Of a DNA stretch of 49,196 bases, positions 31,620-48,883 are shown one piece after another. The stretch spans positions 1-49,196 of the forward strand of contig JAJRTN010000125.1 of the NCBI GenBank assembly GCA_024278275.1, written 5' to 3'. Source of the DNA: Candidatus Hydrogenedentota bacterium. GTDB taxonomy: Bacteria > Hydrogenedentota > Hydrogenedentia > Hydrogenedentales > JAJRTN01. The notes beneath the pieces were generated by a model. That model saw only the letters and a list, made by a program, of their open reading frames with translations. It was not told the origin of the DNA and made no database searches. Position 1 is the stretch's first letter; every line of letters starts with the position of its first letter. The translations under genes and the position numbers were made by a program.

Positions 31620-31790
31620 TTCACCTTGGCGGATCTGGCTTTCCCCGTTCATGCCCGGCCCCAGCGTGGCGGTATTCCAACATACCCATAGGGTTGTCGC
31701 GCCCTTCGATATCCGGTCCCGTCCGCGGAACTCGAAGCATTTCGAGTTCTCGGTGTGCATGCGTATCGGAACGGACATGACGGCAAATCC

Positions 31791-34176: not shown

Positions 34177-35265
34177 TCAGCCGCCTCCGCCAAAGACCGC
34201 GGACCAAAAGCTGAAGGAGTTGCCCACCGTGCCCACGATGCCGCCAATGTCGGAAGCATTGGCAATGGGGAATTTGCTCTTGAACTTGATGAATTCCACA
34301 TGGCCATCCATCCAGAGCACGTTGCATCCGCCGGGGACATGGTTGAAACGCATGATGCCCGTGTCCGCGGCGTGGGTCTGATCAATGCCGGCGGTGGCCA
34401 ACCATTTGTAGATGCCTTCCTCGGAAAAAGCGTCCATCATGATGGGCAAGGTGCTTTGCGCGATGGCCCCGGCCGCCGGGTTGTTGATGTCCGTGATAAA
34501 GAAACGCTCAATGCCGTCTTTCAGGCGGGGAAGGGTTGACGGCCACGGACTGCCATCGTCATCGACCTGCGGGCCGAAGATGGCAAAGATATGGTCCTGC
34601 ACATTGATGTCACTGTTCCAGGGAGCATAATTTCTGAGGTCCACCACGAAGTTGTTGAATTGACTGAAGGCGGTCCCGTCACAGCCTTGGTTGATCATCT
34701 CCTGTCCCGATGTCTGCGGGTTGTCGTAAAAGCCCGGGCGGGCATAGGAGATATTATAGGCCGCGCTGACCCCCCATAAGGTGGCCTCGGTTCGGGCCGC
34801 GTTGGGCACATACCAATACGAAACCGGTTGCGAAAGCATGAAGTTCAAACATGCCCGGTTGTTGTTTTGGCCCTGCGCGATGGTCGCAATGTCCTGAATC
34901 TGCTGGGCGAAATCGTCTTTCACGCCAAAGCGCTCTCCCCAGAGGTCGCCCCGGGGATCCGAAGGACAGACGGCAATGTTTGGATCCGTCCAGTAGTCCG
35001 GGTAGAGCACCTCGCCCGCGTAGGCCAGGTGTGCCGTCGTCCACGATGGGATGTTCACCGTGGAATGACCGGGATAGAGTCCGCCCCGGTCTTCGCCGGA
35101 ATACATCTTGAAGATGATTCCCCACTGCTTGAGGTTGTTGGCGCATGATGCGCGTCGTGCCGCCTCCCGCGCCCGCGCCAGGGCGGGCAGCAAGATGGCG
35201 GCCAGGATGCCAATAATGGCGATGACGACCAAGAGCTCGATGAGTGTAAAGCCTCTCTTGTTCAT
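34177..35265 (-). CDS. DUF1559 / H-X9-DG protein with prepilin-type N-terminal cleavage-methylation domain (type II secretion pseudopilin-like)
   Basis: The N-terminus ([47 protein letters not shown]) is the hallmark of this PVC-superphylum family. A perfect Shine-Dalgarno sequence (AAGGAGA) lies 5 nt before the ATG. Confidence 0.85.
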
Positions 35266-35342: not shown

Positions 35343-35498
35343 CGATTGTAACCCCGAAGGGATTTGCTGTCCTTAACAGAAGGGCCAAAAACTAGCACCA
35401 CGAGGTCAAGTGCTCCTGCGTCGGGCGGCAATAAACGGATCCGCCTGTTGGGCGAAGACGGAGCTCCCGGCGTGAGGGCGGTGGAGGAATGCGTAGCG

Positions 35499-36422
35499 AT
35501 GCGTGTTGATGCGACCCCCTTGTCCGGAGGGGGGCAGGCTTTTGTCCCGCACTCCGGCTTACGTCTTCATGGGGCGATGCGGTGTGTTGAAGCCGGAGAA
35601 ATCGGGGAACATGAGCACCCGTTTGGTGAACTGGTCCTGGTCCGCCAGGGGCGGGGAGTCCATCGTGTGCGGGGCTGGGAATACCCGCTTGGCCCGGGGG
35701 ATGTTTTCTACGTTCCCGTTGGTCACGCCCATGCGTACCCGGATGTGGACGAATTGCACGTGATGATTTTCGATTTTGATCCGGCCATCTACCTTCACCA
35801 GGTCCAGGAACTCACCCTGATGCCTGGCGCCCTCGGGCTGTTCGGGCCGGACTGGCCCCCCAATCTTTTGTATCATGGGCAAAAGTCTGTTTTTTGCGTC
35901 CATTTACAGGGTGAGGCGTGGGCGCAAGCGGAGAGCCTGGCCGAGTCGCTGTTAAGGTCCTGCGAGCATGATTCGCCGGAAAGACACACGGAGGTTCGTG
36001 CGTGGTTCGCCTTGCTGATCGTTTGTCTTTGCCGTTATTACCCGGAGCACGTATTGCCCACGGGCACCCGGAATGTACCGTTGGCGAAAGCATTGGCCTA
36101 CATCGAGGACCATTACGCCGACGCTCTGACCCTTGACGCGCTGTCCGGCGCGGCCTGTACGTCCCGAAGCTCGCTGCAGCGGGCCTTTCGGAAGCACCTG
36201 GCCTGCACGCCCATGGAATACGTCATGCGCCGCCGAATCGACCGCGCGCGGGAACTGCTTCTCTTTACGGACATGAGCATGACGGCCATTGGGGAAAGCA
36301 CGGGTTTTACCGACAGCAATCATTTTTCCCGGTGTTTTCGACGGTACGCCGGGGAGTCTCCCAGGATGTACCGGAACAAGAACCATGCCTTGGGTCCGGG
36401 TGTCCCCATTAACGATATGTAA
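35499..36422 (+). CDS. AraC-family transcriptional regulator (cupin N-domain plus HTH)
   Basis: Cupin motifs are present (HEHPFGELVLVRQGRG, YVPVGHAHAY). The two C-terminal HTH units read LTLDALSGAACTSRSSLQRAFRK and MTAIGESTGFTDSNHFSRCFRRYAGESP. The start is uncertain; the ORF opens at the TTG at 35364. Confidence 0.7.
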   Translation: MRVDATPLSGGGQAFVPHSGLRLHGAMRCVEAGEIGEHEHPFGELVLVRQGRGVHRVRGWEYPLGPGDVFYVPVGHAHAYPDVDELHVMIFDFDPAIYLHQVQELTLMPGALGLFGPDWPPNLLYHGQKSVFCVHLQGEAWAQAESLAESLLRSCEHDSPERHTEVRAWFALLIVCLCRYYPEHVLPTGTRNVPLAKALAYIEDHYADALTLDALSGAACTSRSSLQRAFRKHLACTPMEYVMRRRIDRARELLLFTDMSMTAIGESTGFTDSNHFSRCFRRYAGESPRMYRNKNHALGPGVPINDM

Positions 36423-36488
36423 AAAAATTCCAGGAGTATATTGCATAATGGTATTTCTTTATGCTACGCTGTCATCCATAAAGGGGCC

Positions 36489-37361
36489 CATATGAACGCT
36501 TCAGCCAACACGAAGGATTTGAACGGAAACTGCCTGGCCCGGCTTCGCGCCTGGACGAAACAGGGCAAGGGTTCCGTGCCGGCGATTGCCGCTTTTGTGC
36601 TGGAAAACCCCGAGCAGGCCCTGAACGTGACCATCAATGAATTCGCCTTGCGATCCAAGGCCGCCGTATCGTCGGTTTCCCGTTTTTGCACCACCATCGG
36701 CTATTCGGGTTACAAGGAGTTTCAACTGGATCTTGCCGCCTCGCTTGCCCAACAGCCGCCGTCCCTGGGGGTTTTCGATGCCCATGCCGCCCCCCATGAC
36801 ATCATGCACTATGTTTTTGAATGCAACCGGCGCAGCATCCGGGAAACGGAGAAGCTGATCAGCCGGGAAGTCTTTGTCGAAGTGGCCCGGTTGATCCATG
36901 AATCGCACCGGGTGTATGTGCTTGGCGTGGGCGCTTCGGGGCTGGTGGCCCGGCAGGCGGCCACGCGCTTCATGAGCCTGGGGCTCACGGCATCGGCGTT
37001 GACGGACCCCTATCTCCAGGTATTCGTGACGGAAAACCTGGGGAAAAGCGATGTCGTCATCGGCGTGAGTCACACCGGCTTGACCCGTTCGGTGGTGGAG
37101 AGCGTCGAGGCGGCGCGTACGTGCGCGGCGAGGGCGGTGGCTATTACGAACTACCCGCAATCATCCCTGGCCAAGGCCTGTGACTTTGTGCTGACGACCT
37201 CGTTCGAGTAGCGACGCGCCAACGCGGCGGTGTCCTCCTCGCATATTGCCCAACTGTGCCTGATCGATGCGCTGTACTTCGTCGTGGGAAGTTGGCGATC
37301 CCGTGGCGCCACCGCGTTGGCGGAGCTTGCCGAGAAGCGGGTGCAACGATTGCTTCGCTGA
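36489..37361 (+). pseudogene. RpiR/MurR-family regulator (HTH_6 + SIS domain) interrupted by an in-frame TAG at 37209-37211
   Basis: N-terminal HTH_6 reads INEFALRSKAAVSSVSRFCTTIGYSGYKEFQ. The SIS domain reads VYVLGVGASGLVARQAA...VVIGVSHTGLTRSVVESVEAARTCAARAVAITN. After TTSFE-TAG the same frame continues for 49 codons, encoding the expected SIS C-terminus (SSHIAQLCLIDALYFVV...). Read-through would give a 290-aa protein. Confidence 0.6.
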
Positions 37362-37396: not shown

Positions 37397-38746
37397 ATGT
37401 ACAAACGCTACTATGACCCCAACATTTTCCTCAACATGCTGGACGGAATAGATCTCGACAATCACGTGATCGCGTCCTATTACATGAAGGACCGCCTGGA
37501 GGGAATCAAGTTCCTCGACCACTTCTCGCTTGTTCAGGCCATGGGTCTGGAGGGCTCGACCGGCACCTGGGAAAAGGTGGCGGAGGATACGGATGAGTTG
37601 CGCGCCGCCATGTCCAGCCGCATGGTGGGGTATCACGAGATCCCCGGGGAAGATGAATACACGAAGGCGGCCGTGGTCCAACTGGCCTTCCCCATCCGCG
37701 CCTGGGGCGACAACCTGCCCATGATGCTCCTGGCCGTGGCGGGCAACTGCTTCGCCTACTCCAAGAACCTCATCATGACGGATATATTCATCGGTAAGAA
37801 CCTGCTGAAAAAGTTCCAGGGGCCGAAGTTCGGGGTGCCGGGCGTGCGGGAATTGACGGGGGTCAAGGAACGTCCGCTCTCGCTGCACATCATCAAGCCG
37901 AAGATGGGCATGACCCCCGAGCAGACGGCCAACCAGGTCTACCAGACCGCCCTGGGGGGCGCCGACATGTGCAAGGACGACGAGATGCTCGCCGACGCCT
38001 ACAACAGCACGGCGGAACAGCGCGTGCCCGTCATCATGGACGCCATCAACCGGGCGGCCGACAAGATGGGCAAGAAAATGATCTACCTGTGCAGCATCAC
38101 CGATGAAAGCGACAAGATGGTCGCCAAGGCGAAACGGGCCATCGAACTGGGCGCAAACGGCCTGCTGGTGGCCTATTCGGCCGGTCTGCCCGCGTTGCGG
38201 CGCCTCACGTCGGACCCCGATATCACGGTTCCGGTCATGCTGCACGCTTCCCACATGATCGCCATGATGAAGCAGATGGCCTGGCCCGTGCTGGCCAAGT
38301 TGTGTCGCCTCTGCGGGGCGGACCTGATGCTGACGCCCACCTACTGGTCCTCCATCCCCATGGTGTCCATGGAAGAGGGGTTGCGGACTTCTTTCATGCA
38401 GCTCGCCCCCTGGGGGTATATCAAGCCGACTTTCCCCATGCCCTGTGCGGGCGTCTATCCCGGCCTGGCGCCCATCATCATCGGCGAATACGGCACGGAC
38501 ATTGTCATCCCCGCGGGCGGCGGCATGTTGGGCCACCCCGACGGGTACACGGCGGGCGCGAAATCCTGGCAACAGGCCATTGCCGGCGCGCTGTCGGAAG
38601 ACGACTTCATCGAGTTTGCGAAGAAACCCGAAAATGGCGAGTTGCGCCGCGCCATCGAGCATTGGGGTTACATCGAGCGTCCCAAGGCGCCGTGGCTGCG
38701 GGTGGCTCCCGAGTTCCATCCCAAGCCCATGAAGTTTGATGATTGA
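37397..38746 (+). CDS. RuBisCO large-subunit-like protein (form IV RLP)
   Basis: A strong Shine-Dalgarno sequence (AGGAAGGAAG) precedes the start. RuBisCO large-chain motifs are present: IKPKMGMTPEQ (cf. IKPKLGLS, Lys175) and GGADMCKDDEML (cf. GGLDFTKDDE, the carbamylated Lys201 position). The protein is 449 aa and lies 35 nt downstream of RpiR. Confidence 0.85.
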   Translation: MYKRYYDPNIFLNMLDGIDLDNHVIASYYMKDRLEGIKFLDHFSLVQAMGLEGSTGTWEKVAEDTDELRAAMSSRMVGYHEIPGEDEYTKAAVVQLAFPIRAWGDNLPMMLLAVAGNCFAYSKNLIMTDIFIGKNLLKKFQGPKFGVPGVRELTGVKERPLSLHIIKPKMGMTPEQTANQVYQTALGGADMCKDDEMLADAYNSTAEQRVPVIMDAINRAADKMGKKMIYLCSITDESDKMVAKAKRAIELGANGLLVAYSAGLPALRRLTSDPDITVPVMLHASHMIAMMKQMAWPVLAKLCRLCGADLMLTPTYWSSIPMVSMEEGLRTSFMQLAPWGYIKPTFPMPCAGVYPGLAPIIIGEYGTDIVIPAGGGMLGHPDGYTAGAKSWQQAIAGALSEDDFIEFAKKPENGELRRAIEHWGYIERPKAPWLRVAPEFHPKPMKFDD

Positions 38747-39298
38747 ATCCGGCACGGCCGACCATCGTTTTTTTGACGACCCAAAAGTGCGGCAGGAAAA
38801 GCGGTAACCGTTTACGGCATCCCGCGCCCGCCCTTGGACAATGGGGCCGGTTGGGACCGATAGAGGGAGGATAGAGCTTTGTTTTCTTATGTGACGCTGT
38901 GGAGTCCGTAGGACTTCAATGGAAAAGCGCCGCGGCGCAGACCGCCGTATTATGCTGAAATGACGGTGTTCGCCGTGACATTGGATGGCTTGAGGCCTAC
39001 CGGCCTCACAGCCGAGGGCGGCTGTGCCACATTCAAGTGAAGACTGCGCCGTGAACAGTTACGCTTTCACGGGGATAACGATCCTGGTGATGTTGCCGGT
39101 AACGTTCTTGGCGCACGGCTTCGCGGGTCACGTGACAATTCAGGCGAGACGCCCGCGATAGTCTCTTACCAGTACATTTCTTTACAAATAGGCACGAAAA
39201 GGTGATTGCATCTTTTCCTTGGCCCCAGGGTTCTCCGTGGAGACAAAAACCTGGTTCCGGCTTGGCCGGGTTAGGCGTTCCCGCGGGGGACCGTGGGA

Positions 39299-40801
39299 AT
39301 GAGGAAGAAAAGGGCTGACGCAAAAGTGAAGCGGTATCTCGCATTTGACCTGGGCGCCGAAAGCGGGCGTTGCATGTTGGGCCAACTTGACGGCGGCACG
39401 TTGGAAATCACGGAATTGCTCCGTTTCCCCAACGGTCCGGTCAACGTGAACGGCACCCTCTATTGGGATATCCTCGGCATCTACAAGAATATGCTGGAGG
39501 GGTTGTCCCTCTTCGCGCGGCGGTACGGACCGGAAGCCGATGGCATCGGCGTGGATAGCTGGGCCCTGGACTTCGGCCTCCTGGACAAGCAGGACAACCT
39601 TTTACAGAATCCCGTTTGCTACCGGGACGGGCGCACCGAGGGCATGGTGGAGGCGGTGTCGGCCACGGTGGAGCCCGGGGAAATTTTTCGTCGCACGGGC
39701 CTCAACGTGAACGCCATTCACACGTTGTTCCAACTGAAGGCCGTCGCCGAACGCAGCCCGGAGGTGCTCGAACGGACGGCTTGCCTGCTCAACATCCCCA
39801 GTTTGCTGGCCTGCTTCCTGTGCGGGGCGAAGGTGGCGGAGCACACCCTCGCGGGGACCACGCAACTCTACGATCCCCGCACCCGCGCATGGGACGCCGA
39901 ACTGCTGGGAATGCTCGATCTGCCGGTGGAGATTCTTCCGGAGATCGTGGAACCCGGCACGCTCTTGGGTGAATTGAGCGAGGCGGCGAAGGCCGCCACC
40001 GGCCTGACGCATGCGCCCGTTTTTGCCACCTGCACACACGACACGGCGGCGGCCGTGGCCTCGGTGCCGGGGGAGGGCGAGGATTGGGCGTTTATCAGTT
40101 CTGGCACGTGGTCGGTCTTCGGCACGCTCTCGGCCGAAGTGATCACGTCGGACCGTGCCCGCGCGGCGGGCGTGTGCAACGAGCCGGCATTCGGCGGAAA
40201 CTTCGTCTGCAAGAACCTGATGGGCCTGTGGCTGCTTCAACAGGCGCGGGCCTCATGGCGGCGCCAGGGGAAGGAACTCTCCTACGGGGAACTCGCGGCG
40301 GCGGCGTGGGAAGCACCCAAAGGGGGGCCGCTGGTATCGGTGGCGCACCCCGGTTTCCTCGTCCCGTCCGACATGGTGGAAGAGATTCAGCGCTTCTGCC
40401 GGGCCACCGGACAGACCGCGCCGGATTCCGTGCCCGAGGTAACCCGCTGCATTCTTGAGAGCCTGGCGCTCTGCTATCGGCAAAGCCTGGAGGATTTGAG
40501 GGCTGTCACGGGAAAAAGTATCAACCGGATTCACGTGGTGGGTGGCGGTTCACTCAACCAACCCCTGTGCCGGTTTACCGCGGCGGCTTGTGGCGTACCC
40601 GTGGCCGCGGGCCCGAAGCAGGCCACCGCCGCGGGGAACCTGCTGACCCAGGCCGCCGCCGAACTGGGCGGTCCGGAGGGAATCCGGTCCGTCGTAAAAA
40701 ACTCATTCCCCCTGAAAACATACGGGCCGGTCGATGACGACGGGTACTGGAAGAAGCGTTACGAAACGTATCTGCGAATCGAAGCATCGGGGCTTTCCTG
40801 A
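39299..40801 (+). CDS. rhaB: FGGY-family sugar kinase, best match rhamnulokinase
   Basis: Conserved blocks resemble E. coli RhaB (comparison from memory): AFDLGAESGRCML, GVDSWALDFGLLD, YRDGRTEG, NLMGLWLLQ, CILESLALCY and IHVVGGGSLN. The start is at the internal ATG, not the GTG at 39293. Confidence 0.75.
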   Translation: MRKKRADAKVKRYLAFDLGAESGRCMLGQLDGGTLEITELLRFPNGPVNVNGTLYWDILGIYKNMLEGLSLFARRYGPEADGIGVDSWALDFGLLDKQDNLLQNPVCYRDGRTEGMVEAVSATVEPGEIFRRTGLNVNAIHTLFQLKAVAERSPEVLERTACLLNIPSLLACFLCGAKVAEHTLAGTTQLYDPRTRAWDAELLGMLDLPVEILPEIVEPGTLLGELSEAAKAATGLTHAPVFATCTHDTAAAVASVPGEGEDWAFISSGTWSVFGTLSAEVITSDRARAAGVCNEPAFGGNFVCKNLMGLWLLQQARASWRRQGKELSYGELAAAAWEAPKGGPLVSVAHPGFLVPSDMVEEIQRFCRATGQTAPDSVPEVTRCILESLALCYRQSLEDLRAVTGKSINRIHVVGGGSLNQPLCRFTAAACGVPVAAGPKQATAAGNLLTQAAAELGGPEGIRSVVKNSFPLKTYGPVDDDGYWKKRYETYLRIEASGLS

Positions 40802-40816
40802 ACGGAGGACCAAGCC

Positions 40817-41797
40817 ATGTTGAAGGACTACTACTTTGGCGCCTGTCTGCCGACCTTTGGCAACTGCGCGGACCGCTATTGCCAAGGCGGCTACAAGCGT
40901 GATTTCACGATGGACGAGATGCTGGACCGCTCGCTGGAAGTGGGCAGCATCGACGGGCTGGAGTTGGTGGGCAACTGGCATGTCAACGATGGGAATGTGC
41001 GCGAAGTGGCGCAAAAGTTCAGGGACAGAAACCTGAAGATCCCCATGCTGGTGCCCGATCTCTGGACACAGGCGAAATGGGGCAAGGGCAGCCTCGCGGC
41101 GTCGGACGCCGCGACCCGGCAGGCCGCCATCGACGAAGTGCGGAAGGTCATGGACTGGGCCGCCGAACTCGATTGTCCCTACGTGGATGTCTGGCCGGGG
41201 CAGGATGGCTTCGACTACCCCTTCCAGGCGGACTACGTTTCGGCCTGGTCGTGGCTGCGTGAGGGCATCGCCGCGTGCGCGGGCCACAACGACCAGGTGA
41301 AGGTGCTGGTGGAGTACAAGCTCAAGGAGCCCCGCCGTCACTGCTTTATCGACAGCGCGGCGCGGACGCTGATGCTCCTGGACGGCATCGATAACACGGG
41401 GGTGCTCCTGGACGTGGGTCATGCCATGGCGGCGGGAGAAAACATCGCGGAGGCCGTGGCATTTCTGAACGCCTACGGCAAGCTGGATTACCTGCACCTG
41501 AACGACAACTACCGCGCCTGGGACGACGACATGATTTTCGGTTCGGTGAATCTCATCGAGGATCTGGAATTGCTGTACTGGCTCAAGCGTGTCGGGTACC
41601 AGGGCTGGCTCACCCTCGACATCTTTCCCTTCCGCATCGACGGTGTCGATGCGGCGAAGGCGTGTCAAAGCTGGATAGACGGCCTGCTCAACGCGCTGGA
41701 GAAGGTTGGCCAGGCGTCTTTTGACGTGGCCGTGGCCTCGGGTGATCCCGTGCAGGCGGGCGTCATTATCCGGGAAGCGCTTGGACTGGGCCGGTAG
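40817..41797 (+). CDS. sugar (phosphate) isomerase/epimerase, xylose-isomerase-like TIM barrel
   Basis: The protein is 326 aa with a pattern of acidic and His metal ligands typical of AP-endonuclease-2 / xylose-isomerase-like TIM barrels (VLVEYKLKEP, LLDVGH, LHLNDN). The stop is TAG. Confidence 0.65.
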   Translation: MLKDYYFGACLPTFGNCADRYCQGGYKRDFTMDEMLDRSLEVGSIDGLELVGNWHVNDGNVREVAQKFRDRNLKIPMLVPDLWTQAKWGKGSLAASDAATRQAAIDEVRKVMDWAAELDCPYVDVWPGQDGFDYPFQADYVSAWSWLREGIAACAGHNDQVKVLVEYKLKEPRRHCFIDSAARTLMLLDGIDNTGVLLDVGHAMAAGENIAEAVAFLNAYGKLDYLHLNDNYRAWDDDMIFGSVNLIEDLELLYWLKRVGYQGWLTLDIFPFRIDGVDAAKACQSWIDGLLNALEKVGQASFDVAVASGDPVQAGVIIREALGLGR

Positions 41798-41818
41798 GCG
41801 GAAGGGGATTATCGAATC

Positions 41819-42076
41819 ATGGCGACAGCAATCAAGATCCCGGACATGGGAACCACCGTGGACACCATGGTCCTGGAGACCTGGCTTGTCGAGGAAGGTG
41901 AAACCATCGACCGCGGCGACGTGATCGCCGAGATCCAGACCGACAAGGCCCTCACGGACCTGGAGTCTTTCGCGCGCGGCACGTTACTGAAGAAAATGGT
42001 GACCGAAGGCGCCGAGGTTCAGGTGGGGGACGTGATCGCCTACCTGGGAGAACCCGGCGAGGAAATCCCCGGATGA
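41819..42076 (+). CDS. stand-alone lipoyl-attachment domain protein (E2-type lipoyl carrier, 85 aa)
   Basis: The lipoyl-lysine motif is AEIQTDKALTDLES, within a biotinyl/lipoyl hybrid-barrel pattern (IKIPDMG...GETIDRGDVIAEI). No E2 catalytic domain follows. It is in the same reading frame as the upstream isomerase, separated by TAG plus 7 codons. Confidence 0.75.
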   Translation: MATAIKIPDMGTTVDTMVLETWLVEEGETIDRGDVIAEIQTDKALTDLESFARGTLLKKMVTEGAEVQVGDVIAYLGEPGEEIPG

Positions 42077-42096
42077 CCCCGGGAAAGGAAGAATAC

Positions 42097-43062
42097 ATGC
42101 CGTCGAAGTATGAGCCGACTTTTCTGCTGGACCTGTACCGGAAGATGGTCCTCATCCGGCAGTTCGAGGACCGGGTGAAGTTCCTCTTTCTGGAGGGCAT
42201 CATGCCGGGCACCATCCACCAGTACCAGGGACAGGAGGCGATAGCCGCGGGGGTTTGCGCCGCGCTGAATACTGACGACATCATCACCAGCACCCACCGT
42301 CCCCATGGCCACGCGCTGGCGAAGGGCCTTAGCGCCGAATCGCTGCTGCACGAGCTTTTCGGGAAACCTTCCGGGTGTTGTTGTGGCAAGGGGGGCTCCA
42401 TGCACGTGGGCGACCTGGAAAAGGGGATGCTGCCCGCCATTGCCATCGTGGGCGGAGGCGTGCCCATCGCCACGGGCTGCGCCCTGGCCTTCAAGATGCG
42501 CGGCGAAAAACGGGTGGCGGTCAGCTTTTCGGGCGACGGCGCCGTGAACGAGGGCGCCTTCCACGAGGGCGTCAACATGGGCGCCATCTGGGATCTCCCC
42601 GTCATTTACGTCATCGAGAACAACCTGTATTCGGCCTCCACGCCCATCGCCGACACGGTGAAGCTTGAAAAGGTTTCCGACCGGGCCGCGGGCTACGGCA
42701 TACCGGGGGTCACGGTGGACGGCAACGATGTGGTCGCCATGTATGAAGCGGCGCGGGGCGCGGTGGAACGGGCACGCAACGGGGAGGGGCCCACCTTGAT
42801 CGAGGCTGTCACCTACCGCATCACGGGCCATTCCCGGCGAGACCCCTGCAACTATCAGCCCAAGGAGCAGCGCCGGGAGGCCAGGAAGCGGGAACCCATC
42901 AGGCGATTCGCCAGGTACCTGGTGGAGAAGGGGCTGGTCACCGAGGCCGAGCTGGACATGTTCCGCGAGGAGATTGACGCAGAGATCGAACGCGCCGTGG
43001 AATCCGCCCAGGCCGCGCCGGACCCGGCTCCCGAGTTCGCCCTGGAAGGGCTCTGGGCCTGA
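42097..43062 (+). CDS. TPP-dependent dehydrogenase E1 component, alpha subunit (AcoA/PdhA-like)
   Basis: The TPP-binding motif reads GDGAVNEGAFHEGVNMGAIWDLPVIYVIENN. The phosphorylation-loop-like region reads YRITGHSRRD. The start at 42097 has a strong Shine-Dalgarno sequence (GGAAAGGAAG). An alternative ATG at 42073 overlaps the upstream stop by 4 nt. Confidence 0.8.
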   Translation: MPSKYEPTFLLDLYRKMVLIRQFEDRVKFLFLEGIMPGTIHQYQGQEAIAAGVCAALNTDDIITSTHRPHGHALAKGLSAESLLHELFGKPSGCCCGKGGSMHVGDLEKGMLPAIAIVGGGVPIATGCALAFKMRGEKRVAVSFSGDGAVNEGAFHEGVNMGAIWDLPVIYVIENNLYSASTPIADTVKLEKVSDRAAGYGIPGVTVDGNDVVAMYEAARGAVERARNGEGPTLIEAVTYRITGHSRRDPCNYQPKEQRREARKREPIRRFARYLVEKGLVTEAELDMFREEIDAEIERAVESAQAAPDPAPEFALEGLWA

Positions 43063-43108
43063 GATCACCGGAACATTACGCGGATTACACGGGAAGAGAG
43101 GTACGGAA

Positions 43109-44125
43109 TTGGCACGATTGAGCATTGCCGAAGCGCTCCGACAGACGCTTCGTGAAGAAATGAACCGGGACGAGCGGGTTTTCTGCATCGGGGAAGACAT
43201 CGCCATTCCCGGCGGCTGGGGCGGCGCTTTCACGGTGACACTGGGCCTGGAGGAGGATTTCAAGGACCGCATGATCAACACGCCCATCTCCGAAGCGGGC
43301 TTCACGGGCGTGGCCCTCGGCGCGGCGCTCATGGGGCTGCGTCCCGTGGCGGACGTGCAGTACGGGGACTTTCTCCTGTGCGCCATGGACCAGATGGTGA
43401 ACCAGGTCGCGAAGATGCGCTACATGTCCGGCGGCAAGATCAAGGTGCCCTTCGTCATGCGCGCGCCCACGGGGGCGACGGGCCGCGGCACGCAGCACGC
43501 GCAAAACCTGGAAAGCATGTTCTTGCAGGCGCCCGGATTCAAGATCGCCTGTCCCGCCACGGCCTACGATGCGGTGGGGCTTTTGCGTGCCGCCATCCGC
43601 GACGACAACCCGGTACTCCTTTTCGAGCACAAGCTGCTCTACGGCTCCAAGGGCGCCCGGGCCGAAACGGGCGCCATGGATGCGTCGAGCGAGATTCCCG
43701 AAGAGGATTACGTCGTGCCGCTGGGCAAGGGCATCGTGCGCCGCGAAGGGAGCGACATCACGGTGATCGCCCCGCTGCTCATGATGCACCGGGCCCTGGA
43801 GGCCGCGGAGATCCTGGCGGATGAAGGCGTATCGGTCGAAGTCATCGACCCGCGCAGTCTCGTGCCCTTCGATTGGGAACTGGTGGAAACCTCGGTGCGG
43901 AAGACCGGGCGCCTCGTGGTGGCCCAGGAAGGTCCCTTGCGCGGAGGGCTGTGCGGCGACATTGCCGCCGAGATGGGCGAACGCTGCTTTGATGCGCTCA
44001 AGGCCCCCGTGCTCCGGGTGGCCTCGCCGGACATCCCCGCGCCCTTCGCCCCGGCGATGGAGGCCTTCTACCGCCCTGACGCGGCGCGGATCGTGGATGC
44101 GGTCCGGAAAACCGTAAAGGATTGA
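43109..44125 (+). CDS. TPP-dependent dehydrogenase E1 component, beta subunit (transketolase-like Pyr and C domains)
   Basis: A TTG start is inferred from the conserved N-terminus (ARLSIAEALRQTLREEMNRDERVFCIGEDI). Further motifs are GFTGVALGAALMGLRPV and MRAPTGATGRG. Confidence 0.75.
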   Translation: MARLSIAEALRQTLREEMNRDERVFCIGEDIAIPGGWGGAFTVTLGLEEDFKDRMINTPISEAGFTGVALGAALMGLRPVADVQYGDFLLCAMDQMVNQVAKMRYMSGGKIKVPFVMRAPTGATGRGTQHAQNLESMFLQAPGFKIACPATAYDAVGLLRAAIRDDNPVLLFEHKLLYGSKGARAETGAMDASSEIPEEDYVVPLGKGIVRREGSDITVIAPLLMMHRALEAAEILADEGVSVEVIDPRSLVPFDWELVETSVRKTGRLVVAQEGPLRGGLCGDIAAEMGERCFDALKAPVLRVASPDIPAPFAPAMEAFYRPDAARIVDAVRKTVKD

Positions 44126-44135
44126 GGGGACAAGC

Positions 44136-44741
44136 ATGGCGGAACTGCGCAGCTATATCGTGATCGACAGTTTGCAGGAGCAGTTGGCGGCGTTCATGGC
44201 CTCCACGGTGGTAGGCTACATGCCCGTGGCGGGCATGGCGGCCCTTTTCGTGGAGGTGGCGCCCGGCATGGAGATCGTGCGCCTCCTCGACGTGGCCGTG
44301 AAGGCCACCAACACGCGGCCCGCCATCCAGGTGGTCGAGCGCAGCTTCGGCACCCTCGAAGTTCACTCCGAAAACCAGGGCGACGTTCGGCAGGCGGGCC
44401 GGGCCGTGCTCGACGCCATGGGGCTTACCGAGGCCGACCGGGACGAACCCCGGGTGGCCTCGTCCACGGTCATTCGGCACATCGATCCCTACCAGGCCGC
44501 GCTGATCAACAAGAGCCGGCAGGGGAGCATGTTGCTTGCGGGGCAGACGGTGTTCATACTGGAGACCCAGCCGGCGTTGTACGCCGTGCTGGCGGCCAAC
44601 TAGGCGGAAAAGGCAAGCCGCGTCACGTTGGTGGATATCCGCCCCTTCGGCAATTTCGGCCGGCTATACCTGGCCGGGGAAGAAGCGGACGTGGTCGTGG
44701 GAAGCGAGGCCGCCATCGCGGCCCTGGAAACATGCCGCTAG
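44136..44741 (+). pseudogene. tandem BMC-domain shell protein (BMC-T-like), reading frame interrupted by in-frame TAG at 44601-44603
   Basis: A GAGGGGA Shine-Dalgarno sequence precedes the start. The first, divergent BMC-like domain reads AALFVEVAPGMEIVRLLDVAVKATNTRPAIQVVERSFGTLEVHSENQGDVRQAGRAVLDAMG. After ...ILETQPALYAVLAAN-TAG the same frame continues AEKASRVTLVDIRPFGNFGRLYLAGEEADVVVGSEAAIAALE. This completes a canonical BMC fold (cf. [27 protein letters not shown]...[13 protein letters not shown]). As annotated to the first TAG the product is 155 aa; read-through would give 201 aa. Confidence 0.5.
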
Positions 44742-44777
44742 CGGTTCATTACGGATGGAAAACCGGGAGATCAGGTC

Positions 44778-45071
44778 ATGGCTGATGCGTTGGGTATGAT
44801 TGAATGCAAGGGATTCGCGGCGATGGTTGAGGCATCGGACGCGATGGTGAAGGCCGCCAAGGTGGAACTGGTGGGCTACGAGAAGATCGGCGGCGGCTAC
44901 GTGACGGCCATCGTGCGCGGCGACGTGGCCGCGGTCAAGGCGGCCTGCGAGGCGGGCGAACGGGGCGCTCGTGCCGTGGGCGAGGTCGTTTCGGTGCATA
45001 TCATCCCGCGGCCCCACGACAACGTGGATTCCGCACTCCCCCTGGGCCGCCCCCAGGCCGTCAAGAAATAG
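44778..45071 (+). CDS. BMC-H hexameric shell protein (PduA/EutM-like)
   Basis: The sequence [64 protein letters not shown]...VHIIPRPH is a textbook Pfam00936 match. The stop is TAG. Confidence 0.9.
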
Positions 45072-45114
45072 CGCCCCGGGCGACACACGCACGATCCCAT
45101 GGAGATAAAGCCCC

Positions 45115-45426
45115 ATGCAAATTGGACGCGTTATCGGGACGGTCGTCTCGACCGCGAAGGAACCGGCGCTGGAAGGCCGTAGATTCCTGCTGGTCCAGTT
45201 CCTCGACCTCGACGCACGAACAACTTCCTCCTACGTGGTGGCGGTGGATGCCGTCGGCGCGGGCACGGGCGAGGTGGTTCTCGTCGCCACGGGCAGTTCC
45301 GCGCGCCAGACGGAGACCACGAGCAATCGGCCTTGCGACGCGGTTGTCATGGCCATTATCGACTCGTGGGACGTCCATGACGAGGTGAAGTGGCGCAAGG
45401 CCGATGATACGCCGGGAGACGGGTGA
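45115..45426 (+). CDS. BMC-P vertex protein (EutN/CcmL/PduN family), copy 1
   Basis: The N-terminus is MQIGRVIGTVVSTAK. Further motifs are FLLVQ and VAVDAVGAGTGEVVLVATGSSAR. Confidence 0.85.
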   Translation: MQIGRVIGTVVSTAKEPALEGRRFLLVQFLDLDARTTSSYVVAVDAVGAGTGEVVLVATGSSARQTETTSNRPCDAVVMAIIDSWDVHDEVKWRKADDTPGDG

Positions 45427-46823
45427 TGCCTGTTTCTCCCAACGACATAGAGCAGGCCGTTCGTGAAGTCCTCAAGCGAATCGAGGGCGAAGGTGAAACC
45501 CCCGGCCCGGTGTCGTCTCCGGCGGTGGATGACGCGGTGGAACGCGCGCGCCGCGCCTACGACGCCTACTGCGGCATGGGCCTCAACAAGCGCCATGAGA
45601 TGGTCGCCGCCATGCGGGAAGCGGCCAAGGCCCATGTGAAGACCTTCGCTGCGGATGCCGTGCGCGAAACCGGGCTCGGGCGGGTCGAGGACAAGATCCG
45701 CAAGAACCTGCTGGTCATCGTGAAAACGCCCGGCCCGGAAATACTCACCCCCGCCGCGCAAACAGGCGACCATGGCTTGATGCTGACGGAGCGCGCCCCA
45801 CACGGGGTTATCGGATCCATCACCCCGTGTACCAATCCCACCGAAACGGTGATCAACAACGCCATCAGCATGGTGAGCGGCGGAAACGGCGTGGTCTTCA
45901 ACGCCCATCCCGCCGCGGCCAAGTGCTCACAGGAGTGCATCCGGGTGCTGTCGGAGGCCATCGTCGCCGCGGGCGGACCGCCCGACCTGGTCGTGGGCGT
46001 GGAACAGCCCACCATAGAGACCGCCAGGGCCCTCATGGGGAGTCCCGGCGTGGCCCTCCTGTGTGTTACCGGCGGCGCGGCCGTGGTGAAGGCCGCCATG
46101 CTGTCCGGCAAGAAAGTGGTCGCGGCCGGCCCCGGCAATCCGCCGGTCGTCGTCGATGAGACGGCGGACCTGGCGAAGGCCGCGCGCGCCACGGTCCAGG
46201 GCGCGTCCCTGGACAACAACATCATCTGCGTTTCCGAGAAGGAGGCGGTCGTGGTCGATGCCGTGGCCGATGCCTTCAAACGGCATATGATGGAGGAGGG
46301 CTGTGTCGAGGTCTCCGGTCGCGACCGCGACCGGCTCTGCGACCTGATCTTCGCGTCCCGCGACGGCAACCGGGGCGTAATGAACAAGGATCTGATCGGC
46401 AAGGACGCCAGTGTCATACTGGACCGGATAGGCATCCGCGCCGCGCCGGAAACGCGCCTTGTCATTATGGACGTTCCGGCGGATCATCCGCTCCCCTGGA
46501 CCGAGCAACTCATGCCGGTCTTCCCCATCGTTCGCGTTTCCGACGTGGACGCGGCCATTGGCCTGGCCCTTCGCTACGAGGGCGGCCGACGGCATACCGC
46601 CGTCATGCACTCGCGCAATATCGACAAACTCAGCAAGATGGCCCGCCTGGCCAACTGTTCCATTTACGTGAAGAACGGTTCGTCCCTGGCGGGGCTCGGC
46701 ATGGGGGGCGAAGGCTACACCTCTTTCACGATTGCCAGCCCCACCGGCGAGGGGCTCACCACCGCGGTGAGTTTCACCCGCCTGCGGCGATGCACCCTCG
46801 TGGACGCCTTCAGGATCATATGA
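45426..46823 (+). CDS. CoA-acylating aldehyde dehydrogenase (PduP/EutE family) with N-terminal encapsulation-peptide-like helix
   Basis: The start overlaps the BMC-P stop (GTGATG). The N-terminal amphipathic segment DIEQAVREVLKRIEG is followed by a Gly/Pro-rich linker. The catalytic Cys region reads DNNIICVSEKE, and EGYTSFTIASPTGEG is also present. Confidence 0.85.
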   Translation: MPVSPNDIEQAVREVLKRIEGEGETPGPVSSPAVDDAVERARRAYDAYCGMGLNKRHEMVAAMREAAKAHVKTFAADAVRETGLGRVEDKIRKNLLVIVKTPGPEILTPAAQTGDHGLMLTERAPHGVIGSITPCTNPTETVINNAISMVSGGNGVVFNAHPAAAKCSQECIRVLSEAIVAAGGPPDLVVGVEQPTIETARALMGSPGVALLCVTGGAAVVKAAMLSGKKVVAAGPGNPPVVVDETADLAKAARATVQGASLDNNIICVSEKEAVVVDAVADAFKRHMMEEGCVEVSGRDRDRLCDLIFASRDGNRGVMNKDLIGKDASVILDRIGIRAAPETRLVIMDVPADHPLPWTEQLMPVFPIVRVSDVDAAIGLALRYEGGRRHTAVMHSRNIDKLSKMARLANCSIYVKNGSSLAGLGMGGEGYTSFTIASPTGEGLTTAVSFTRLRRCTLVDAFRII

Positions 46824-47386
46824 TGAGCATTCTCGGCCTCATGGAATTCGACGGCATCACGCCGGGCATGATCGCCACTGACGCCATGGTCAAGCGGGCG
46901 CCGGTGACCGTGTTGGAAACCGGCCCCATCGACCCGGGAAAGTACCTTACGGTCCTCACCGGCGACCTGGCCTGTGTCGAGGAGGCCGTCGCCGCGGGCG
47001 ATGAAAGCGGCGGCGCGCACGTGGTGCGTGGCGTCGTTCTCGCGAACCTGCACGACGGCGTGATCCCCGCGCTGAAGGGCGAGGCCCCCGACCCGGAACC
47101 GGGCGCCGTGGGCATCGTGGAGACCTCGGACACCGTGGCCGCCGTCCATGCCGCCGACGCCGCCTGCAAAGCCGCCCCGGTGGCGTTGATTACGTTGCAC
47201 CTCGCCCGTCACATCGGCGGCAAGGGCTACCTGGTGATGGTGGGCGTTCTCGCCGATGTCGAAGCGTCGGAACAGGCCGCGCGGGAGGCGGCCGCACGGT
47301 CCCTCGTGGATTCCACCGTCATCCCGCAGCCCGACGAAGCGTTCTTCGCGCGCTTGTTGCGGCCGGCGCCGTTCCGGAGGCTGTGA
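46820..47386 (+). CDS. BMC-T tandem-domain shell protein, PduT-like
   Basis: An ATGA overlap links it to the aldehyde dehydrogenase. Domain 1 reads ILGLMEFDGITPGMIATDAMVKRAPVTVLETGPIDPGKYLTVLTGDLACVEEAV. Domain 2 reads AVGIVETSDTVAAVHAADAACKAAPVALITLHLARHIGGKGYLVMVGVLADVEASEQAA. Confidence 0.75.
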   Translation: MMSILGLMEFDGITPGMIATDAMVKRAPVTVLETGPIDPGKYLTVLTGDLACVEEAVAAGDESGGAHVVRGVVLANLHDGVIPALKGEAPDPEPGAVGIVETSDTVAAVHAADAACKAAPVALITLHLARHIGGKGYLVMVGVLADVEASEQAAREAAARSLVDSTVIPQPDEAFFARLLRPAPFRRL

Positions 47387-47670
47387 AACCGGTGATTCCC
47401 GCGCGCGTCATAGGCAGACTCGTTCCGGCCGCCACGCTGGCGGCCTTCAAGGGCGTTCCCTTTCTCATCGTGCAACCGGTGGACGAACACCTCCAGGACC
47501 GCGGCGCTCCGAAAGTGGCCTGCGACGCCATCGGGGCCAACGTGGGCGAAGTGGTGTTCATGGCACAGGGCGGCGAGGCGACCTTTCCGCTTCCGGAGCC
47601 CTTCAACCCCTCGGACACCACCATCGTGGCCATCGTGGACGAAGTCACCCCGGCCGGAGAAACGTCATGA
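47383..47670 (+). CDS. BMC-P vertex protein (EutN/CcmL family), copy 2
   Basis: A GTG start overlaps the BMC-T stop (GTGA). Motifs are IPARVIGRLVPAAT, FLIVQPV and VACDAIGANVGEVVFMAQGGEA. Confidence 0.75.
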   Translation: MKPVIPARVIGRLVPAATLAAFKGVPFLIVQPVDEHLQDRGAPKVACDAIGANVGEVVFMAQGGEATFPLPEPFNPSDTTIVAIVDEVTPAGETS

Positions 47671-47939
47671 AACTGGCGCGCGTTCTCGCACAAGTTGTGG
47701 CCACCCGGAAGCACCCCTTCTATCACGGACGCAAGACCTTCATGGTGCGGACACTCGACCTGGAGGGAAAGGAGACCGGGCCCGCCTTTGTCGCCGTGGA
47801 CCGCGTCCAGGCGGGCGTGGGCGACCGCGTGTTGCTCATGCAGGACGGCGGGTCCGCACGTATCATGTTCGACGCGCCCGAGGGGCCGGTGCGGAGCACC
47901 ATCGTGGGCATCGTGGATGCCGTGGAGATGACAGAATGA
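47667..47939 (+). CDS. BMC-P vertex protein (EutN/CcmL family), copy 3
   Basis: An ATGA overlap links it to copy 2. Motifs are MKLARVLAQVVATRK, FMVRTLD and VAVDRVQAGVGDRVLLMQDGGSAR. Confidence 0.8.
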   Translation: MKLARVLAQVVATRKHPFYHGRKTFMVRTLDLEGKETGPAFVAVDRVQAGVGDRVLLMQDGGSARIMFDAPEGPVRSTIVGIVDAVEMTE

Positions 47940-48688
47940 CGGAACTGGAACAGCGAAAAGCGGTCTGCGATGTAGGCCGCCGACTCTATGAGAAAAACCT
48001 CGCCCTCGCGACGGACGGAAACATCAGCATCCGCCTCGGACCCGACCGCTATCTCTGCACGCCCAGCGGCGTGCCCAAGGGATTCATGAAACCGAATGAC
48101 CTGCTCGTCGCGGACGGCGCGGGCCGCAAATTGTCGGGCGCGGGCAAGGTCACGAGCGAGTTCAACACCCACCTCGTGTGTTACCGCGAACGGCCCGACA
48201 TTCATGCCGTGGTCCATGCCCATCCTCCCAAGGCCATCGGGCTCAGCATCGCGGAAATCGATCTGACCGAACTCGTCCTCCCCGAGGTGGTTTACACCAT
48301 CGGCGGAATCCCCACCTCCGGCTACGCCACGCCGGGCACCACGGAAGGGGGCGAAGCCATCGTGGACCTCATCCGGCAGTGCGACGCGGTCATGCTCGAC
48401 CGGCATGGCGCGGTCACCGTGGGACAGGATGTGTACGATGCCCTCTTCAAGATGGAGAAAGTGGAAACGGCGGCCGAGTCTCTGCTCATCGCACACCTCC
48501 TGGGCAATGTGCGAAGCCTGGACCGGCAACAGGTGGAAAAGCTCGAAGCCGTTCGCGAGGCCTACAACCCCCATGGCAGGGCCTACACCGAGGCCGGCGC
48601 CGAGGACGCCCTCGCTCCGGGCGCGGCGAACACCCCCGAGCTGGACCGCATCATCGCGGAAACATTGCAGACCCTGGGCTTGGCCTGA
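47936..48688 (+). CDS. class II aldolase/adducin-family protein (rhamnulose-1-P / fuculose-1-P aldolase-like)
   Basis: An ATGA overlap links it to BMC-P copy 3. The metal-binding His cluster reads HAVVHAHPP...HG. The phosphate-binding N-terminal region reads GNISIRL...TPSG. Confidence 0.8.
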   Translation: MTELEQRKAVCDVGRRLYEKNLALATDGNISIRLGPDRYLCTPSGVPKGFMKPNDLLVADGAGRKLSGAGKVTSEFNTHLVCYRERPDIHAVVHAHPPKAIGLSIAEIDLTELVLPEVVYTIGGIPTSGYATPGTTEGGEAIVDLIRQCDAVMLDRHGAVTVGQDVYDALFKMEKVETAAESLLIAHLLGNVRSLDRQQVEKLEAVREAYNPHGRAYTEAGAEDALAPGAANTPELDRIIAETLQTLGLA

Positions 48689-48758
48689 TGGCGTTACGAA
48701 ACCCTCGGGATGTCGATCCCCAAGGCAATCTTCAGCGAGGGGGCCGCACCGTCTCTTT

Positions 48759-48781
48759 GTTGCGGCCATCTCAGCCGCAAC
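48759..48781 (+). other. perfect 8-bp stem-loop downstream of the microcompartment operon
   Basis: GTTGCGGC, loop catctca and GCCGCAAC form the stem-loop about 70 nt after the aldolase stop. No U-tract follows on the plus strand, so its function (terminator or RNA element) is unclear. Confidence 0.25.
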
Positions 48782-48883
48782 ATGCGAAACAGCAGGGCCA
48801 AGCGCGGTCCTATGGATGGGACGCCCCAAGCCCCAATTAGCGCAAATGTCCCGGGGAACGCCATGGAGAAGGAGAGGACCAAC

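Follow-up and report, generated by a model that had tools for sequence, protein, structure and literature searches.

The DNA analyzed here is a stretch of 49,196 nucleotides from a Candidatus Hydrogenedentota bacterium (assembly GCA_024278275.1, contig JAJRTN010000125.1; herein referred to as the window, whose coordinates are used throughout), in which a series of sugar-phosphate genes built around a form IV RuBisCO-like protein (RLP) stands directly ahead of a bacterial microcompartment (BMC) gene cassette, with the genes of both units all on the plus strand. The RLP (37397..38746; 449 aa; Pfam RuBisCO_large 3.8e-39, RuBisCO_large_N 3.7e-8) retains both of its lysine motifs, IKPKMGM at residues 165-171 and GGADMCKDDE at residues 187-196. 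It is preceded by a RpiR/MurR-family phosphosugar regulator with HTH_6 and SIS domains (36441..37361; Pfam SIS 2.6e-15, HTH_6 1.5e-11) and followed by an FGGY kinase of the rhamnulokinase/fuculokinase subfamily (39293..40801), predicted from its NCBIfam and PDB matches to be a ketose 1-kinase, a xylose-isomerase-like TIM-barrel protein predicted to be an aldose-ketose isomerase (40817..41797; Pfam AP_endonuc_2 6.1e-25), a stand-alone lipoyl domain of 85 aa with an (E/Q)TDK lipoyl-lysine motif at K43 (41819..42076; Pfam Biotin_lipoyl 2.6e-17), and the alpha (42073..43062; Pfam E1_dh 7.6e-91) and beta (43109..44125; Pfam Transket_pyr 1.2e-41, Transketolase_C 2.9e-36) subunits of a thiamine pyrophosphate (TPP)-dependent dehydrogenase E1. 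The 3′ end of the lipoyl gene overlaps the E1 alpha start by 4 nt, and E1 beta likely starts at a TTG at 43109, before which a GAGAGG-like ribosome-binding site can be read from the sequence. A preliminary description of this DNA had named the RLP, the lipoyl domain and the E1 pair, with both lysine motifs intact and no E2 catalytic core behind the lipoyl domain; all of these features are found as described, and the window holds no 2-oxoacid_dh (E2 catalytic core) domain.

The BMC cassette follows the end of E1 beta (44125) after a gap of 10 nt on the same strand. Its first gene encodes a BMC-T shell protein of the CcmP/CsoS1D-like type (44136..44741; NCBIfam CcmP 2.2e-60, over profile positions 4-156 of 213), which is succeeded by a BMC-H shell protein (44778..45071; Pfam BMC 1.5e-29), a BMC-P (EutN/CcmL) vertex protein (45115..45426; Pfam EutN_CcmL 1.8e-31), an acylating aldehyde dehydrogenase (AldDH) resembling PduP and EutE (45423..46823; NCBIfam PRK15398, 617 bits vs. 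a cut-off of 403), a tandem-domain BMC shell protein (46820..47386; Pfam BMC in two stretches, 3.3e-34), two further BMC-P vertex proteins (47383..47670, Pfam EutN_CcmL 4.4e-19; and 47667..47939, EutN_CcmL 3.1e-23, matched by residues 138-221 of the open reading frame [ORF] 47256-47939) and a class II aldolase, the PVM signature enzyme (47936..48688; Pfam Aldolase_II 2.9e-46, the domain ending at residue 182 of 250). The RLP and its companions, which had been placed in or immediately upstream of the shell-gene block, are immediately upstream of it and not embedded in it, as the shell genes begin at 44136. A class II aldolase with a C-terminal encapsulation peptide (EP), an acylating AldDH, BMC-H, several BMC-P and BMC-T proteins together identify the cassette as a PVM-type locus. 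It has the same gene order, including the aldolase with its C-terminal EP, as described PVM-type BMCs (Erbilgin et al. 2014; PMC4207490, PMC8217296), from which the window differs by the RLP/E1 operon fused upstream, in this lineage only, and by an in-frame TAG in the BMC-T gene. In the PVM organelle, the aldolase cleaves fuculose- or rhamnulose-1-phosphate and the toxic lactaldehyde is converted to lactyl-CoA inside the shell (PMC4207490, PMC4594438). Neither a phosphotransacylase nor a cofactor-recycling dehydrogenase is encoded within 44136-48688, and the contig stops about 0.5 kb later, at 49196; an ORF with a DUF4236 match (48710-49039) comes after the aldolase.

What stands out is the operon, in which a new RLP clade goes together with a lipoyl/TPP enzyme and which is widespread in uncultured bacteria. 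A scan of one genome per species gave 80 RLP loci with orthologues 50-86% identical, and the addition of contigs found by exact protein look-up, with the window counted, brought the set to 86 nonredundant loci. All of these derive from metagenome-assembled genomes or metagenomes of more than ten phyla (labeled Planctomycetota, Verrucomicrobiota, Armatimonadota, Acidobacteriota, Omnitrophota, Spirochaetota, Chloroflexota, Sumerlaeota, Latescibacterota, Atribacteria, Aerophobetes and others), and no cultured isolate was seen among 659 RLP family proteins (E<=1e-20) and the 80 species-level genomes. Neighbors were counted by tblastn with the window proteins and with neighbors from two other loci, both over all 86 loci and over the 36 "full" loci that have at least 8 kb of sequence on both sides. 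E1 stands beside the RLP in 62/86 loci (29/36 full loci), the TIM barrel in 57/86 (32/36), a lipoyl domain in 56/86 (27/36), RpiR in 46/86 (23/36), the FGGY kinase in 44/86 (22/36) and an E2 catalytic core in 40/86 (21/36, or ~58%). The usual same-strand order is RpiR-(FGGY)-RLP-(FGGY/TIM)-E2/lipoyl-E1a-E1b, and often the RLP is followed directly by E2 or the lipoyl domain, E1 alpha and E1 beta. The recurrent neighbor clusters of the 86 loci comprise TIM, FGGY, E1a, E1b, RpiR, E2, a URO-D-fold family, an LsrF-like family, a short-chain dehydrogenase/reductase (SDR) and a ribulose-phosphate epimerase-like (RPE) family; an aldolase gene is absent from most of the loci. By these counts, the association of RLP, E1 alpha/beta, lipoyl domain, kinase and isomerase is a genuine and strongly recurrent gene set, and a full-text literature search found no description of an RLP/E1/lipoyl operon.

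In 4/86 loci (2/36 full loci), shell genes are found no more than 10 kb from the RLP. Three of the four are syntenic, namely the window and the loci designated L088 (RLP 94% identical) and L007 (RLP 86% identical), and have in common the order RpiR-RLP-FGGY-TIM-lipoyl-E1a-E1b-T-H-P-AldDH-T2-P-P-aldolase, with the L088 contig beginning inside RpiR. The gaps between E1 beta and BMC-T measure 10 nt in the window, 10 nt in L088 and 44 nt in L007, synteny being kept between the window and L007 even though several proteins are merely 44-51% identical, and no terminator-like site is predicted at the junction in the window. In the fourth locus (L055, from a spirochaete) the same cassette precedes RpiR-RLP; the four genes that follow its aldolase and lead up to RpiR-RLP (L055 5881-9070) are for a PfkB-family kinase, a response regulator, a protein without a Pfam match and an MscS-type channel, and a DeoR regulator precedes the cassette. 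The reverse search covered 80 metagenome loci anchored on BMC-T relatives (49-83% identical), around twenty of them with 5-10 kb of upstream sequence. The cassette order in these loci is the same as in the window, the order with the EP-bearing aldolase being found in many of them, and homologues of the RLP, E1, lipoyl domain, FGGY kinase and TIM barrel were found in 0/80; published PVM locus catalogues likewise make no mention of RLP/E1/lipoyl-type genes (PMC4207490, PMC8217296). Because the shell link is confined to 4/86 RLP loci and the module occurs in 0/80 BMC-T loci, the RLP module and the BMC cassette are separate units, joined in one lineage and once more, independently, in L055. The recurrence of RLP, E1 alpha/beta and lipoyl genes with shell genes, which the preliminary description had suggested looking for, is thereby borne out in L088 and L007, with a further RLP-shell adjacency in L055, but 82/86 RLP loci are without any shell gene within 10 kb.

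The best explanation of this pattern, to which we give an even chance, is that the 36.4-44.1 kb region is a self-contained and widely conserved sugar-phosphate operon with cytosolic enzymes, which is here fused to, and co-regulated with, a PVM-type cassette. Whether the two units share one ketose-1-phosphate pool under common regulation seems to us about evenly poised; a shared pool would explain the co-regulation of module and BMC. Alternatively, two unrelated carbohydrate operons may simply abut in one lineage without any shared function. The rarity of the link in both directions (4/86; 0/80) would fit such an accident, as would the chance that the L088 and L007 arrangement is shared by descent and the four unrelated genes that separate the cassette from RpiR-RLP in L055. 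We nonetheless think an accident unlikely, since the same-strand junction of 10-44 nt has been kept while the proteins diverged to 44-85% identity, and two independent adjacencies among ~80 loci compare with ~0.1 expected for random placement (a rough estimate). Moreover, the only isomerase and ketose 1-kinase candidates for the BMC aldolase in the window are those of the RLP module, and canonical cassettes have no FGGY or TIM gene nearby.

Two genes of the window are interrupted by in-frame TAG codons, at 37209-37211 in RpiR, where the conserved C-terminal SIS sequence resumes in frame beyond the TAG, and at 44601-44603 in BMC-T, whose conserved C-terminal part likewise carries on in frame. 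The distance of 35 nt previously given between RpiR and the RLP therefore holds only if the TAG at 37209-37211 is read through; measured from the end of the uninterrupted RpiR ORF, it is 185 nt. L088 has GAG (Glu) at both positions and both genes are intact there, and the BMC-T gene of L007, also intact, has Glu at the TAG position. Stop-codon reassignment was rejected as an explanation: the isomerase gene ends in a TAG of its own (41795-41797), its 326-aa product being equal in length to the L088 orthologue, and given this genuine TAG stop, the two in-frame TAGs are nonsense mutations or G-to-T sequence errors and not recoding. The gap between the RLP and the kinase (38747-39292) is unusually long in the window, at 546 nt; L007 has ~90 nt there and L088 has 199 nt. 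The 546-nt stretch is without repeats, without an Rfam match and not conserved in L088, and the Rfam scan of the whole window at gathering thresholds gave no match either. A 103-aa minus-strand ORF overlapping this gap (39033-39344) is probably spurious.

The preliminary description had taken the RLP, E1 alpha/beta and lipoyl protein for noncanonical BMC cargo, with E1 releasing an aldehyde within the shell for capture by the AldDH. Encapsulation peptides are, by their published definition, short amphipathic helices attached through linkers and missing from homologues outside BMCs; BMC class II aldolases bear them C-terminally and the aldehyde dehydrogenases at one end or the other (PMC4594438). 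A hydrophobic-moment scan did not discriminate cargo, as helices within conserved domains reach scores equal to those of encapsulation peptides, and for this reason we used terminal extension relative to non-BMC orthologues as the criterion for cargo. The two enzymes of the cassette have ends of the expected kind. The AldDH N-terminus is a poorly conserved segment, unaligned over 22 residues against L055 and 32 against L007, whose strongest amphipathic window (NDIEQAVREVLKRI) is encapsulation-peptide-like; so is the C-terminal tail of the aldolase (ELDRIIAETLQTLGLA), with similar tails in L007 and L055, and aldolase homologues in BMC-free loci are 22-43 residues shorter, except that of L047 (4 shorter). 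The RLP, TIM-barrel protein, lipoyl protein and E1 beta, by comparison with 57-87 non-BMC orthologues, have 0-3 unaligned terminal residues. E1 alpha and the FGGY kinase each have ~11 extra N-terminal residues, which are nonamphipathic and depend on uncertain start codons. The terminal amphipathic extensions that might have been looked for on the RLP and E1 are hence lacking on the RLP and E1 beta, and the extra residues of E1 alpha do not qualify as such.

Several observations can nevertheless be cited for encapsulation. The module and cassette share a strand, the 10-nt gap between E1 beta and the shell genes belongs to an arrangement kept in L088 and L007, an independent adjacency exists in L055, and the E2 core is missing in the BMC-linked loci. 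Cleavage of the acetoin type, as by the E1 of acetoin dehydrogenase, yields an aldehyde, which also counts in favor of this idea. We consider it improbable all the same: the shell-free state of 82/86 RLP loci, the absence of the module from all 80 BMC-T-anchored cassettes and the lack of EP-like ends on the module proteins leave the RLP, E1 and lipoyl proteins unsupported as cargo. Stand-alone lipoyl domains and lipoyl-E1 alpha fusions occur in BMC-free loci too, and we know of no case in which a lipoyl arm is reoxidized by E3 within a shell. The enzymes of the RLP module are most likely cytosolic. Of the preliminary description as a whole, the gene set stands as real, unusual and recurrent; its assignment to the compartment does not, and the module is an independent operon.

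Among the partner enzymes, the kinase is nearest in the PDB to FucK (4c23, 280 bits) and RhaB (2cgj, 265 bits), scores 387 bits against the NCBIfam rhamnulo_kin model (under the cut-off of 528), matches LsrK weakly (57 bits vs. a cut-off of 528) and has 24% identity to the Escherichia coli apulose kinase AplK in a local match of 164 residues only. L-fuculokinase and L-rhamnulokinase both phosphorylate C1 of a 6-deoxy-2-ketose, and RpiR regulators are phosphosugar sensors. The kinase of the previously envisaged pathway would accordingly be, by its sequence, a ketose-1-kinase of the FucK/RhaB type. The TIM-barrel protein matches PDB 3ktc, deposited as a "xylose isomerase", with 205 bits, and XylA and L-rhamnose isomerase more weakly. 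We did not adopt D-apiose as the substrate; the kinase is not AplK-like, which leaves the 3ktc match and a few neighboring glycosidases. The OiaC/OiaX and ApsI-AplK-AptAB apiose pathways (Carter et al. 2018; PMC13001218) are nonetheless comparable, being sugar-catabolic operons in which an RLP is combined with a kinase, or a TIM-barrel isomerase with a kinase of the FGGY family and a TPP enzyme of two subunits. The two-subunit TPP enzyme of the apiose pathway that cleaves a ketose phosphate is a transketolase, whereas that of the window is an E1 alpha/beta pair with a lipoyl acceptor.

The E1 pair had been called AcoAB-like. An E1 alpha/beta pair is indeed present, but acetoin-type cannot be told from pyruvate-type by its sequence. 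E1 alpha scores 342 bits against PDH_E1_alph_y, under the cut-off of 394, and 197 bits against human pyruvate dehydrogenase E1 alpha in the PDB, and E1 beta scores 325 bits against NCBIfam PRK09212, a subfamily-level model with a cut-off of 321. The pair has the same heterotetramer-type E1 alpha/beta, TPP site and lipoyl domain with conserved lysine as the AcoABCL and PdhABCD systems. Those systems are expected to include an E2 core and an E3, whereas the window has neither, its lipoyl domain is split off, and the genes lie inside a phosphosugar operon beside an RLP. The lipoyl lysine, in the form (E/Q)TDK or NDK, is invariant in 53/53 orthologous domains, of which 13 are stand-alone (including that of the window) and 40 are fused to E2. 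Elsewhere the lipoyl domain is joined to E1 alpha, in some cases together with an E3-binding domain. Such N-terminal fusions without an E2 core (L089 9510-10985; L090 12492-14003; proteins such as P0315, P0345 and P0431) are an unusual architecture for a system of the 2-oxoacid-dehydrogenase type. Since stand-alone and E1-fused lipoyl domains without an E2 core are also found in BMC-free loci, they are a recurrent trait of the system and not a peculiarity of BMC loci. No E3-like family appears among the annotated recurrent neighbor clusters of the RLP loci.

It could be asked whether E1 alpha/beta and the lipoyl protein form an ordinary pyruvate or acetoin dehydrogenase, which would oxidize pyruvate or acetoin made by the pathway and not act on the product of the RLP. 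By family, the two subunits match pyruvate dehydrogenase E1 alpha and beta best, and the database names of close E1 homologues, although mixed, are mostly "pyruvate dehydrogenase E1 alpha". We find this highly doubtful, as the alpha subunit falls under and the beta subunit barely over its curated cut-off, the E1 genes stand directly beside the RLP in most loci across more than ten phyla, and an operon without E3, often without an E2 core and often with the lipoyl domain fused to E1 alpha, has an architecture that is not that of a housekeeping enzyme.

Public databases name members of the RLP family either "2,3-diketo-5-methylthiopentyl-1-phosphate enolase" (JGI) or "RuBisCO large subunit C-terminal-like". 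The domains PF00016 and PF02788 combined with an incomplete set of carboxylase residues place the RLP in form IV, and that incompleteness sets it apart from the carboxylating RuBisCOs of forms I-III. The scores against curated models are 255.4 bits (cut-off 409) and 207.2 bits (cut-off 513.6) for MtnW (NF007095 and TIGR03332), 204 bits (cut-off 497) for rubisco_III and 137.7 bits (cut-off 700) for OiaX (NF042437), so that it does not qualify as OiaX. Identity is 30-32% to two solved MtnW enzymes (32% to 2oek) and 30-33% to two solved form III enzymes, the best solved structure being MtnW at 190 bits. Homologues were sought among 1.84 billion cluster representatives, and a neighbor-joining tree from BLOSUM distances was built of 93 sequences, with four named references only, reconstructed from printed alignments. 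In this tree the RLP family clusters tightly, its sisters being unnamed lineages 51, 44 and 40% identical to it, and it branches apart from MtnW and form III. The phylogenetic placement and active-site comparison called for in the preliminary description thus yield a clade separate from MtnW and form III, its position among the other named form IV clades lying outside the reach of the tree.

The RLP family keeps the RuBisCO residues E60, T65, W66, N123, K175, K177, K201, D203, E204, H294, G381 and G403/G404, and replaces R295 by Ala, H298 by Met, H327 by Leu, K334 by Ser and S379 by Cys. The residues that are kept are those for binding one phosphate (the P1 site) and for enolizing a 2-ketose at C3; those that are lost bind the second phosphate and stabilize carboxylation. 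Features common to the RLP and MtnW/YkrW (2oek, 2zvi) are the form IV fold, a metal site of carbamyl-Lys, Asp and Glu, the equivalent of K175 and a GGG-x-GHP site for phosphate; both have also lost K334. The RLP differs at Asn117, which corresponds to RuBisCO position 123 and to the position of the catalytic Lys of MtnW (Lys98 in Geobacillus); Asn is found there in the window RLP and in all 8 family members aligned, whereas 2oek, 2zvi and two relatives have Lys. At RuBisCO position 177 the RLP family has Lys where MtnW has Met, Val or Ile. That the RLP is the methionine-salvage enolase MtnW, as in the JGI annotation, has a negligible chance of being right: MtnW is its best-scoring named family and best solved structure and many family members carry the name, but the scores fall under both equivalog cut-offs, identity is low, the catalytic Lys is replaced, the tree separates the two, and the conserved neighbors are a kinase, an isomerase, E1 and E2, with no mtn-type gene among the annotated recurrent neighbor clusters of the 86 loci (MtnA, MtnK, MtnX and MtnD were not searched by profile). 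At the level of defining residues and thresholds, MtnW identity is refuted, which disposes of the alternative that the preliminary description had itself named, and by the same residues and thresholds the MtnW label on members of the RLP family is unsupported. We predict from these residues that the window RLP is an enolizing enzyme acting on a ketose monophosphate and represents a new form IV clade.

We hypothesize the following pathway for the operon. The isomerase would convert an aldose to the 2-ketose, the likeliest aldoses being 6-deoxy- and 5-deoxy-sugars, for example L-rhamnose or L-fucose, and the kinase would phosphorylate this ketose to a ketose-1-phosphate. The RLP, which keeps the carbamyl-Lys/Mg and P1 phosphate sites and has lost the second phosphate site and Lys334, would then enolize the ketose-1-phosphate at C3 and move the carbonyl along the chain, comparable to the Rhodospirillum RLP with methylthioribulose-1-phosphate. 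The RLP of Rhodospirillum rubrum (5-methylthioribulose-1-phosphate 1,3-isomerase, of the "DeepYkr" type) reportedly enolizes its ketose-1-phosphate with a carbonyl shift that gives a 1-substituted xylulose-5-phosphate; its likeness to the window RLP concerns the proposed chemistry alone, and its product is desulfurylated to 1-deoxyxylulose 5-phosphate (DXP), whereas the partner of the window RLP is a TPP/lipoyl E1 system. E1 alpha/beta would next cleave the resulting alpha-hydroxy-ketone phosphate, so that lipoyl-Lys43 takes up an acetyl or lactyl group and a triose or tetrose phosphate is released, and the acyl group would pass to CoA through an E2 core, which is encoded in the operon in ~58% of loci and would be supplied in trans here. 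A 5-deoxypentulose would give acetyl-CoA and glyceraldehyde-3-phosphate, formally a reversal of DXP synthase followed by oxidation, and a 6-deoxyhexulose would give lactyl-CoA and glyceraldehyde-3-phosphate. As most RLP loci are without an aldolase, the RLP and E1 appear to replace the aldolase step, and the aldolase/AldDH route of the BMC would be a parallel, aldehyde-containing solution for the same ketose-1-phosphate pool. That this RLP clade and its lipoyl-bearing E1 perform a new oxidative TPP/lipoyl cleavage of (deoxy)ketose-1-phosphates to an acyl thioester and a sugar phosphate, wired transcriptionally to a PVM BMC in one lineage, is a proposal that we put forward tentatively, as somewhat short of probable.

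A neighbor found in a subset of the loci points the same way. A thiolase of the LsrF type flanks the RLP operon in 11 loci (L001 13840-16571; L002 17116-18009; L010, L012, L013, L022, L037, L041, L046, L058 and L077), with 490 bits against the NCBIfam equivalog (cut-off 297) and 383 bits against E. coli LsrF structures. It is accompanied there by an RPE-like epimerase and an SDR resembling the C-terminal dehydrogenase half of RhaD-ADH, and these loci sit far from any lsr quorum-sensing context; the window contains no LsrF homologue. LsrF is a 3-hydroxy-5-phosphonooxypentane-2,4-dione thiolase, and it is said to split a 1-deoxy-diketo-pentose phosphate into acetyl-CoA and dihydroxyacetone phosphate. 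Its presence in the 11 loci suggests a pathway that runs through deoxy-keto sugar phosphates and finishes in acyl thioesters. The final steps of the Lsr pathway (LsrK, LsrG and LsrF) follow the same logic of an FGGY kinase, a carbonyl migration and a thioester-forming C-C cleavage to acetyl-CoA and a triose phosphate, with the RLP and E1/lipoyl taking the places of LsrG and LsrF. Near some RLP loci there are also genes for rhamnosidase and related glycosidases, which were counted as supporting the acyl-thioester idea.

The wider surroundings of the operons are varied. An apiosidase-like protein (L010 15701-17431; also L011, L042, L053 and L059), an apionate lactonase (L004 5749-7116) and an alpha-L-rhamnosidase (L001 2551-5433) are found near RLP operons, and such glycosidase neighbors in different phyla hint at sugars from complex plant or algal glycans, and at no one particular sugar. 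The most frequent accessory gene encodes a URO-D-fold protein (22 loci at 50% match coverage; L001 11361-12482 and 19407-20387), for which no solved relative was found and which has only a weak match to MtaA-like methylcobalamin:CoM methyltransferases. In the window, the upstream genes (a sulfatase, GH3, a PKD-repeat protein and a permease) give no clue to the sugar. Two very large minus-strand ORFs of 1006 and 734 aa without a Pfam match occupy 28758-33995, adjoined by a DUF1559/N-methyl (type IV pilin-like) protein of planctomycete character at 34177-35265. Directly ahead of RpiR is an AraC-family regulator on the plus strand (35364..36422; Pfam HTH_18 4.3e-24, AraC_binding 1.5e-10), whose membership in the module is uncertain; an AraC gene likewise flanks the RLP in L002 and L003.

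A number of points weigh against the proposed cytosolic operon and its chemistry. We infer every chemical step, while gene content, residue pattern and neighborhood statistics are directly observed. The E1 of the window is, by sequence, indistinguishable from a pyruvate dehydrogenase E1. About a quarter of the lipoyl-carrying loci, the window included, are without an E2 core, and the exit of the acyl group from the lipoyl arm is unexplained in them. The E1/E2 and LsrF/SDR routes look redundant and yet usually co-occur, and the neighboring glycosidases are mixed (apiosidase-like, rhamnosidase, sialidase-like, NAGLU and GH20) and do not identify the sugar. Cargo can also enter BMCs by means other than canonical encapsulation peptides, so the module proteins might be enclosed despite the missing extensions. 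Finally, with in-frame TAGs in both RpiR and BMC-T, the window copy is possibly decaying or misassembled.

For microcompartment research, the locus is a caution that adjacency to a shell cassette does not by itself make genes cargo. For the RuBisCO superfamily, it draws attention to a highly conserved clade (58-94% identity across more than ten phyla) that is routinely mislabeled as a methionine-salvage enzyme, at a time when several RLP clades still await a function and every clade resolved to date has brought sugar or sulfur chemistry that was new. The nearly invariable company of kinase, isomerase and TPP/lipoyl enzyme around this RLP translates into a concrete four-enzyme pathway open to testing. 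If true, rhamnose, fucose or 5-deoxypentoses would have a breakdown route that is both aldolase-free and aldehyde-free, a form IV RLP would have a new catalytic role, and there would be a compartment-free alternative to the PVM organelle. If deoxy-sugar phosphates are indeed split in this way, it would constitute a new rhamnose- or fucose-type route in uncultured polysaccharide degraders of soils, sediments and waters.

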